This document shows, one piece after another, positions 26,623 to 26,897 of a stretch of DNA of 64,000 nucleotides. The stretch comes from Escherichia coli (GTDB lineage Bacteria; Pseudomonadota; Gammaproteobacteria; Enterobacterales; Enterobacteriaceae). The stretch is from assembly GCF_003334815.1 (NCBI RefSeq), contig NZ_QOWO01000010.1. One strand, given 5' to 3'. Each line of letters opens with the position of its first letter. The first letter of the stretch is position 1. The translations under genes and the position numbers were made by a program. The notes below the pieces were generated by a model. The model had not been told where the DNA came from, ran no database searches, and was given only the letters and a program-made list of their open reading frames with translations.

Positions 26623-26897
26623 ACTAACTCCTTAATTGCGTTTGGTTTGACTTATTAAGTCTGGTTGCTATTTTTATAATTGCCAAATAAGAATATTGCC
26701 AATTGTTATAAGGCATTTAAAATCAGCCAACTAGCTGTCAAATATACAGAGAATTTAACTCACTAAAGTTAAGAAGATTGAAAAGTCTTAAACATATTTT
26801 CAGAATAATCGGATTTATATGTTTGAAAATTATTATATTGGACGAGCATACAGAAAAAGCAAATCACCTTTACATATAAAAGCGTGGACAAAAAACA

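Follow-up and report, generated by a model that had tools for sequence, protein, structure and literature searches.

Does the conspicuously AT-rich gap between the divergent Escherichia coli genes ydeI and ydeJ harbor something of its own, such as a small RNA or a small protein, is it a silenced patch of DNA, or does it simply control the two genes that face away from each other across it? The gap occupies positions 26623-26897 of the 64-kb stretch of DNA that was analyzed (hereafter, the window) and is 100% identical to positions 1624498-1624772 of MG1655 (NC_000913.3), being the ydeI/ydeJ spacer of K-12. The reading that we consider probable, and hold with good confidence, is that the spacer is a non-coding control region shared by two divergent stress genes, ydeI (with an RcsB-like box and a sigma-S-like promoter) and ydeJ, with the relic of a gene lying in between, and that it is neither a gene nor the template of an RNA in its own right.

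Composition and coding content of the spacer

The initial annotation described an AT-rich 275-bp gap with several A/T runs between divergent ydeI and ydeJ, and this description proved exact in its coordinates as well as in its substance: the spacer has a G+C content of 28.4% (vs. 49.4% for the whole window) and contains eight runs of at least four A or T residues. Equally AT-rich intervals of 275 nt make up 0.3% of all those in the 64-kb window, in which a G+C content of 30% or less is reached in one other place only, around 196-391. The G+C content of the E. coli spacer is lower than in any of the other taxa examined, whose homologous spacers have 33-53%. Repeats found within the spacer are short AT-rich matches only, an 8-nt direct repeat ATTGCCAA among them. 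The curated annotation of MG1655 places no feature inside the spacer, and it does include the nearby small genes mgtS, mgtT, and mgrR. The features discussed below are collected in Table 1.

Table 1. Annotated, predicted, and candidate features of the ydeI-ydeJ spacer and its flanks (window coordinates).
Feature	Position	Strand	Details
ydeI	26230-26622	-	130 aa
Predicted ydeI 5' UTR, ~29 nt	26623..26651	-	Shine-Dalgarno AAGGAG at 26628-26633
30-codon ORF	26624-26716	-	From the ORF listing
ydeI core promoter (predicted)	26658..26686	-	-35 TTGGCA 26686-26681; 17-bp spacer; -10 CAGACT 26663-26658; then TAA
RcsB/RcsAB-box-like site TAAGAATATTGCCA	26688..26701	+	Abuts ydeI -35 (26681-26686)
Candidate distal promoter TTGCCA-16-TAAAAT	26696..26723	+	Contains conserved AAATCA block (26715-26727)
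74-codon antisense ORF	26769..26993	-	TTG start; not a gene
33-codon ORF	26778-26879	+	TTG start; relic of the 5' end of the lost 170-aa gene
Relic nucleotide homology core	26799-26837	+	Encodes FRIIGFICLKIII
Proximal ydeJ promoter (predicted)	26823..26852	+	-35 TTGAAA 26823-26828; 18-bp spacer; -10 CATACA 26847-26852
ydeJ	26898-27416	+	172 aa, GTG start

The 74-codon antisense ORF, which the initial annotation took to be the only ORF of the interval, does exist, but it is not alone, since the 33-codon and the 30-codon ORFs are found there as well. Conservation of the ORFs was followed in an alignment of eight E. coli spacers, spanning the observed 89-100% identity, and one spacer from a cryptic lineage of Escherichia. 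Neither the 33-codon nor the 74-codon ORF retains its start and frame among these close relatives, as a small protein would be expected to: the TTG start of the former is gone in three lineages and its frame is shifted, with stops, in four, and the latter is frameshifted or destroyed in four of the aligned Escherichia sequences (e.g., there is a frameshift in strain LR-50, the ORF is destroyed in the strains that are devoid of ydeJ, and it is absent from Escherichia sp. E1V33).

An RNA gene fares no better. An Rfam scan of positions 24000-28000 at an E-value of 1 or lower returned MgrR/STnc560 only (24860-25073) and nothing in the spacer, the folding of both spacer strands was no better than that of dinucleotide shuffles (z = -1.25 and -0.02), and the sole spacer match of the terminator scan was a weak 5-bp stem (26737-26724, minus strand), with terminator-like matches in the region being at chance level (3 found vs. 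1.4 expected). The remark in the initial annotation that no terminator was visible is thus upheld, whereas the sRNA that it had deemed possible gains nothing from these scans; the combination by which an intergenic sRNA would be recognized (a family match or a stable structure, along with a promoter and an intrinsic terminator) was not encountered in the spacer.

That the spacer nonetheless encodes an unannotated sRNA, or a small protein translated from either the membrane-like 33-codon ORF or the 74-codon antisense ORF, seems to us extremely improbable. It could be brought up in favor of the protein that K-12 and O157 both have the 33-codon ORF intact, with a hydrophobic segment in its product, and in favor of the RNA that Ssr13 and Ssr37 have been predicted in the “ydeJ/SF1559” gap of Shigella flexneri, where they were RT-PCR positive (PMC4782007). 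That gap, however, exceeds 860 nt and is likely to include ydeI and mgrR, and a positive RT-PCR attests to transcription, not to a discrete sRNA. Besides the scans and the eroded reading frames given above, the curated MG1655 record, which includes such recent small proteins as MgtT, is blank here, about 19% of complete E. coli genomes do without the whole spacer, and the 33-codon ORF is accounted for as what is left of a larger gene.

A gene relic in the middle of the spacer

The ydeI loci compared were those of Escherichia sp., E. fergusonii, Salmonella (three), Citrobacter (three species), Enterobacter soli, Intestinirhabdus, Trabulsiella, and Lelliottia. An intact gene for a protein of 167-170 aa, accompanied by a DUF421 gene, lies between ydeI and ydeJ in C. 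freundii, C. sedlakii, C. amalonaticus, and E. soli, where ydeI diverges, over a spacer of 140-143 nt, from a three-gene unit (170aa-DUF421-ydeJ). The two extra genes are absent from E. coli, E. fergusonii (with a spacer of 169 nt), Salmonella (426 nt), and Intestinirhabdus (245 nt). The lost 170-aa protein itself showed no match to an NCBIfam or Pfam family.

A remnant of this deleted 170-aa gene makes up part of the spacer in E. coli. In a tblastn comparison, the 33-codon ORF corresponded to residues 22-40 of the C. freundii 170-aa protein with 53% identity over 19 aa, and a profile of four orthologues scored 7.4 bits on the correct strand and in the correct frame, a value that was reached by 3 of 2000 dinucleotide shuffles. 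At the nucleotide level, 30 of the 39 nt at 26799-26837 agree with the intact C. freundii gene (codons 27-39), a level that none of the 1000 shuffles attained. The segment has the hallmarks of a pseudogene relic, i.e., its homology is syntenic, the strand and order are right, and the frame is no longer maintained in other E. coli. Salmonella retains the same piece of the 170-aa gene and, just before ydeJ, also a relic of the DUF421 C-terminus (E = 6e-5); a DUF421 relic was not detectable in the E. coli spacer by profile or nucleotide comparison.

The mid-spacer being a relic of the lost two-gene block explains the 33-codon ORF and also the 14-mer TTCAGAATAATCGG, which is exactly common to E. 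coli and Salmonella and encodes the F-R-I-I-G of the relic. The relic segment is, moreover, the most AT-rich part of the spacer (25% G+C vs. 37.5% in the same part of the intact gene), and the decay of the 170-aa gene helps to account for the extreme AT content of the spacer. This origin of the mid-spacer, which was missed in the initial annotation, is a modest new point.

The predicted ydeI promoter and its candidate regulators

Across six genera, with up to ten sequences aligned, no part of the spacer is conserved as well as the predicted core promoter of ydeI, where the identity to Citrobacter and Enterobacter amounts to 74-88%, as opposed to 26-44% farther upstream; in C. sedlakii there is an exact match of 33 nt over 26644-26676, and a further block, CTCCTTAAT of the ydeI 5' UTR, is common to E. 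coli and Salmonella. Transcription of ydeI is predicted to start at around 26651-26653. The consensus of the sigma-S-type extended -10 element is CTATACTTAA, to which CCAGACTTAA (26664-26655, minus strand) matches at 8 of 10 positions, and CCAG(A/G)CTTAA is conserved at the ydeI -10 in most of the taxa compared. Like sigma-S promoters, that of ydeI has a C at -13 (position 26664), a hexamer ending in ACT, and a TAA just downstream, and the expression of the gene has been found to rise in stationary phase (PMC3535384, PMC2241611), with ydeI and ydeJ both being up upon the entry of O157 into that phase (PMC2241611); unlike the sigma-S consensus, which has a T at both positions, it has a C at -12 and a G at -10. 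A promoter scan of the region gave matches at chance level (4 found vs. 3.1 expected), and the two core promoters are predictions placed purely by consensus and homology. RNA polymerase, probably with sigma-S and also with sigma-70, would act on a TTGGCA-17-C-CAGACT-TAA promoter to give a leader of about 29 nt, with sigma-S adding the stationary-phase control.

What else might act on this promoter? The site TAAGAATATTGCCA, which would lie at -49..-36 from the predicted ydeI start, agrees with the RcsAB consensus TAAGAATATTCCTA at 12 of 14 positions, and nowhere else in the 64 kb is there a match with two or fewer mismatches. The chance expectation for such a match is 0.29 per window, with 24 of 100 shuffles containing at least one; by itself, the match is not significant. 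On the RcsB pattern TN(G/A)GAN4TC(T/C)NA (equivalently, TNRGAN4TCYNA), it agrees at seven of the eight specified positions, as does a bdm box, and has TG for TC at one key position, the strict pattern having no match in the window. The aligned position scores 7/8 in C. amalonaticus as well as in E. soli, and only 4/8 in Salmonella.

The rprA control (MG1655) has its box TGAGACGAATCTGA at -49..-36 from the annotated 5' end, and the ydeI box, given the predicted start, is likewise located directly upstream of the -35 (~-49..-36). The 14-bp box immediately upstream of the -35 likens ydeI to the RcsA-independent RcsB promoters (rprA, osmCp1, bdm), as does the strong induction of ydeI by Rcs-activating envelope stresses: a LolCDE inhibitor raised the expression of ydeI 28-66-fold and that of ydeJ 5.5-8.3-fold, a response ascribed by the authors mainly to Rcs, Cpx, and sigma-S (PMC5105897), and colicin M induced ydeI along with Rcs genes (PMC3599342). 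In contrast to this class, the distal half-site of the ydeI box has TG, not TC, and the box is poorly conserved in Salmonella. Because a near-consensus box has the geometry of rprA, where RcsB activates independently of RcsA, phosphorylated RcsB would switch ydeI on, acting under envelope stress from the box set against the -35. Rcs activation of Salmonella ydeI is cited in passages of PMC7917084 and PMC10248123, and since it is in Salmonella, where the Rcs dependence was shown genetically, that the aligned site scores 4/8, RcsB may act elsewhere or indirectly.

A second, more distal RcsB box candidate (TCAGAATAATCGGA, 26800-26813) was dropped, as its 14 bases encode the FRIIG of the relic gene and as E. 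coli and Salmonella have it at different distances from each of the two promoters; the changes seen in it in Citrobacter and in the E. coli strains with a deleted ydeJ preserve GA-N4-TC.

PhoP and BasR (PmrA), which the initial annotation had brought forward as potential regulators, are a different matter. Control of Salmonella ydeI by PhoPQ and PmrAB is cited in a passage of another paper, and by analogy one or both of them could control ydeI directly from within the E. coli spacer, which we nevertheless judge very unlikely. The sole spacer match with three or fewer mismatches to the BasR/PmrA box CTTAAT-N5-CTTAAT (26620-26636, two mismatches) overlaps the start codon and the Shine-Dalgarno sequence of ydeI, downstream of the promoter and not upstream of the -10, where the repeat of a BasR/PmrA-activated promoter would be found, and such matches are at chance across the window (63 found vs. 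55 expected). The PhoP box (T/G)GTTTA-N5-(T/G)GTTTA has only three-mismatch matches in the spacer (26778-26794 and 26789-26805, with one half-site shared between them), and no repeat near a -35 of the kind seen at PhoP-activated promoters was found there; the mgrR promoter, taken as a control, does have a PhoP box with two mismatches at the expected -52..-36 (AGTTTAAGCTCCGTTTA, 25075-25091). With box matches that are poor, misplaced, or at chance, the sequence lends no support to PhoP or BasR acting directly on ydeI in E. coli and points to RcsB and sigma-S instead; RcsB, sigma-S, and RcdA are the regulators that would fit.

The last of these is the one for which binding has been demonstrated, bearing out, in vitro, the regulator binding that the initial annotation had anticipated: the ydeI-ydeJ spacer is a target of the TetR-type RcdA by genomic SELEX (SELEX-chip), confirmed by gel shift and footprinting, with the positions of the footprint given as “data not shown” (PMC3535384). 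The same study reports that the level of ydeI mRNA depends on RcdA in YESCA medium, that RcdA binds DNA cooperatively, in an H-NS-like manner, and proposes anti-silencing by RcdA at csgD (PMC3535384). As with the other RcdA target spacers (csgD-csgB, ycgF-ycgZ, ybjJ-rcdA), the SELEX-chip peak falls between divergent genes, and the ydeI-ydeJ spacer is included in the RcdA-box logo; unlike them, it has no clear TTGTnnACA box, there being a single copy with one mismatch, at chance frequency (26883-26891, minus strand). Mapping of RcdA boxes was abandoned, the consensus being too degenerate (161 matches vs. 205 expected in the window). RcdA would thus bind the spacer cooperatively, be needed in some media, and possibly counter the silencing of AT-rich DNA by nucleoid proteins.

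Such silencing could, in principle, be the main thing that happens here, i.e., the spacer would chiefly be a patch silenced by H-NS/StpA, with both genes being set by silencing and anti-silencing (by RcdA or others) and no dedicated activator site being involved, a possibility that we take seriously while, on balance, doubting it. The high AT content and A-tracts of the spacer make H-NS binding plausible from base composition; the spacer falls within the most AT-rich 0.3% of the window and is more AT-rich than its homologues in all the other taxa examined, the cooperative H-NS-like binding of RcdA and the anti-silencing proposed for it at csgD would suit, and the IS1 insertions found here are in line with an AT-rich target. 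A tightly conserved core promoter and a position-matched RcsB-like box argue for specific control, however, and H-NS binding data for the spacer were not found in the searchable literature. Silencing and the two-promoter explanation are compatible with each other and not mutually exclusive.

The predicted ydeJ promoter, the fate of the locus, and its significance

On the other side of the spacer, the E. coli ydeJ gene is preceded by GAGCATACA, in which the hexamer CATACA lies 45 nt before the GTG, and E. fergusonii, Salmonella, Intestinirhabdus, and C. sedlakii have TGCCATACT ahead of ydeJ, at a distance of 44-49 nt. The ydeJ promoter of Salmonella, where the gene was renamed rdsA, is intrinsically activated by DNA relaxation both in vivo and in vitro (PMC7387798), and the Salmonella reporter fragment (designed start -200/+50), when mapped on S. 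arizonae, puts the start 6-7 nt after the CATACT of TGCCATACT. The E. coli gene would accordingly resemble that of the Salmonella FEDS supercoiling reporter in being its orthologue with a CATAC(T/A) -10 at 45-49 nt before the start codon, and also in that this putative -10 is situated within DNA left from the deleted upstream genes, with the -35-like TTGAAA falling inside the relic. It differs from it in having no TG extension (GAG-CATACA vs. TGC-CATACT) and in a surrounding sequence that cannot be aligned: the tail of the spacer (26813-26897) bears no statistically detectable similarity to Salmonella or Citrobacter, and the homology of the ydeJ -10 depends, for that reason, on the agreement in a short motif and in its distance. 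An 18-bp promoter spacer, as predicted for E. coli ydeJ, is not expected of a relaxation-activated promoter.

The conservation of TGCCATACT is partly confounded as a proof of a promoter, since the motif forms codons of the intact DUF421 gene in C. sedlakii; it is still informative, as it has been kept in the three taxa that have lost that gene. On these grounds, 26847-26852 is taken, with moderate confidence, as the -10 of ydeJ in E. coli, which gives a predicted start at about 26858-26860 and a 5' UTR of about 38 nt. ydeJ would then have a weak promoter, the CATACA of which corresponds by homology to TGCCATACT, the -10 of the relaxation-activated Salmonella promoter. The two divergent promoters postulated in the initial annotation are, overall, borne out by the ydeI core conserved across six genera, the ydeJ -10 at the homologous TGCCATACT position, and the co-induction of both genes.

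Could ydeJ instead be transcribed mainly from farther upstream? The candidate distal promoter is the best sigma-70-like match of the region (TTGCCA-16-TAAAAT, 10/12), and transcription from it would start at around 26730 and yield a leader of about 168 nt containing the relic ORF, the promoter being that of the ancestral operon. Its -10 overlaps a block that has been conserved in Escherichia, Salmonella, and Citrobacter and whose distance from ydeI is fixed (TAAAATCA, common to E. coli and Salmonella, is 95 vs. 93 nt from the ydeI ATG, and the AAATCA block is 53-84% conserved), and the promoter of the three-gene operon of Citrobacter and Enterobacter must lie within the homologous 140-143-nt spacer. 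Despite this, we find it unlikely that ydeJ is served mainly by the distal site: in several taxa the hexamer at this block is a poor -10 (e.g., GGAAAT, GCAAAT), the -35 would overlap the RcsB-like box, the RNA-seq-derived start of Salmonella ydeJ is the proximal one, and the ORF in the Salmonella spacer, STM14_1831, had zero expression in 11 of 11 RNA-seq conditions while ydeJ was expressed, which argues against distal transcription in Salmonella. What is conserved at the distal site may represent the promoter from which the lost 170aa-DUF421-ydeJ operon was once transcribed or, alternatively, a regulator site for ydeI.

A bolder version of the proximal promoter is also conceivable, in which the ydeJ promoter of E. 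coli, as in Salmonella, was built from the leftovers of the two deleted genes and acts as an intrinsic sensor of DNA relaxation, the AT-rich relic DNA, with a G+C content (25%) below that of all the relatives, being kept for tuning the sensitivity of both stress promoters to supercoiling or nucleoid proteins. This is speculative, and we would not wager on it; if true, the remains of a pseudogene would here have been recruited as regulatory DNA.

The spacer is kept in about 4377-4379 of 5426 complete E. coli genomes, the roughly one-fifth referred to above having deleted it whole: about 1047 genomes carry a deletion of ~980 bp in which the spacer is lost completely, along with the 5' part of ydeI and the greater part of ydeJ. 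A further group of about 760 genomes has ydeJ cut to an 81-nt remnant, with the first 240 nt of the spacer remaining, and several strains have IS1 copies within the region or in its place. Given these natural deletions and IS1 insertions, the ydeI-spacer-ydeJ unit is dispensable and still being eroded.

All in all, this is an ordinary bidirectional promoter region and essentially known biology, with its main regulators already published: the binding of RcdA, the control of ydeI by Rcs and in stationary phase, and the sensitivity of the Salmonella ydeJ promoter to supercoiling were all on record. What is added is a proposal, at the level of single bases, for each of the two core promoters and for an RcsB box, the latter being testable by point mutation, and the significance beyond a tidy annotation is small. 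For the biology of E. coli, the frequent natural loss of either ydeJ alone or the entire ydeI-spacer-ydeJ unit nevertheless bears on the role in antimicrobial-peptide resistance that has been claimed for ydeI.

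Repeats around the candidate RcsB-like box and mgrR

The octamer ATTGCCAA occurs as an exact 8-nt direct repeat with 16-nt spacing in the AT-rich gap separating the divergent ydeI and ydeJ (hereafter, the spacer), with one copy corresponding to the predicted ydeI -35 element and the other lying inside the RcsB-like box, where it is also the -35 of the promoter-like site on the plus strand; this repeat is absent from Escherichia sp. E1V33. Within the RcsB-like box, one position of the central N4 varies: 26696 is T in K-12 and C in all seven of the other aligned E. coli sequences (TAAGAATACTGCCA). 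Two PhoP-box-like repeats were seen in the mgrR neighbourhood, one of them 36-52 nt upstream of the annotated mgrR 5' end and the other, with a single mismatch, within the mgrR 3' part, and the Rfam match there spans 214 nt, whereas mgrR as annotated in MG1655 is only 98 nt long.

Features of the window and of the loci from relatives
Feature	Locus	Position	Strand
ATTGCCAA, copy at predicted ydeI -35 (TTGGCA, minus strand)	window	26679-26686	
ATTGCCAA, copy inside RcsB-like box	window	26695-26702	
STnc560/MgrR (Rfam match)	window	24860-25073	-
mgrR (MG1655 annotation)	window	24942-25039	
PhoP-box-like repeat AGTTTAAGCTCCGTTTA	window	25075-25091	-
PhoP-box-like repeat GGTTTACTGGCGGTTTT	window	24946-24962	-
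YdeJ	window	26898-27416	
Gene pair	L020	845-1357	
Gene pair	L022	847-1359	
Gene pair	L024	857-1360	
Gene pair	L005	about 1890-3000	

Two computationally predicted sRNAs, Ssr13 and Ssr37, have been reported to be RT-PCR positive in the "ydeJ/SF1559" gap of Shigella flexneri 2a 301 (PMC4782007); this gap extends over more than 860 nt next to ydeJ and probably contains both ydeI and mgrR.

Forms of the locus within E. coli

Among 5426 complete E. coli genomes, compared over window 26230-27416 (loci L010, L016, L017 and L026), the ydeI-spacer-ydeJ locus takes three forms: an intact one; one, carried by about 760 genomes, in which a deletion has left an 81-nt remnant of ydeJ; and one, carried by about 1047 genomes (19%), in which a deletion of ~980 bp has removed the 5' part of ydeI, the entire spacer and most of ydeJ. 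Furthermore, IS1 elements lie within or adjoin the spacer in two strains (matches H61 and H74): in EC2 (L011), the insertion precedes the ydeI ATG by ~65 nt, within the region of the predicted promoter and RcsB-like box, and in B27 (L012), IS1B has replaced ydeI together with most of the spacer.

YdeJ and its neighbours in Citrobacter and Enterobacter

YdeJ, a protein with a CinA/PncC-type PF02464 domain, is named "2-oxo-tetronate isomerase" by the NCBIfam equivalog NF002972 and PGAP, a name which looks doubtful; in MG1655 RefSeq it is just a "PF02464 family protein", and work on Salmonella has renamed it RdsA, for regulator of DNA supercoiling (PMC7387798). A conserved pair of genes separates ydeI from ydeJ in Citrobacter and Enterobacter. 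The product of one is a membrane protein of the DUF421 family (PF04239); the other encodes a 167-170-aa protein that has a hydrophobic helix at its N-terminus and matches no family in Pfam or NCBIfam. Both genes appear to form an operon with ydeJ in these genera.
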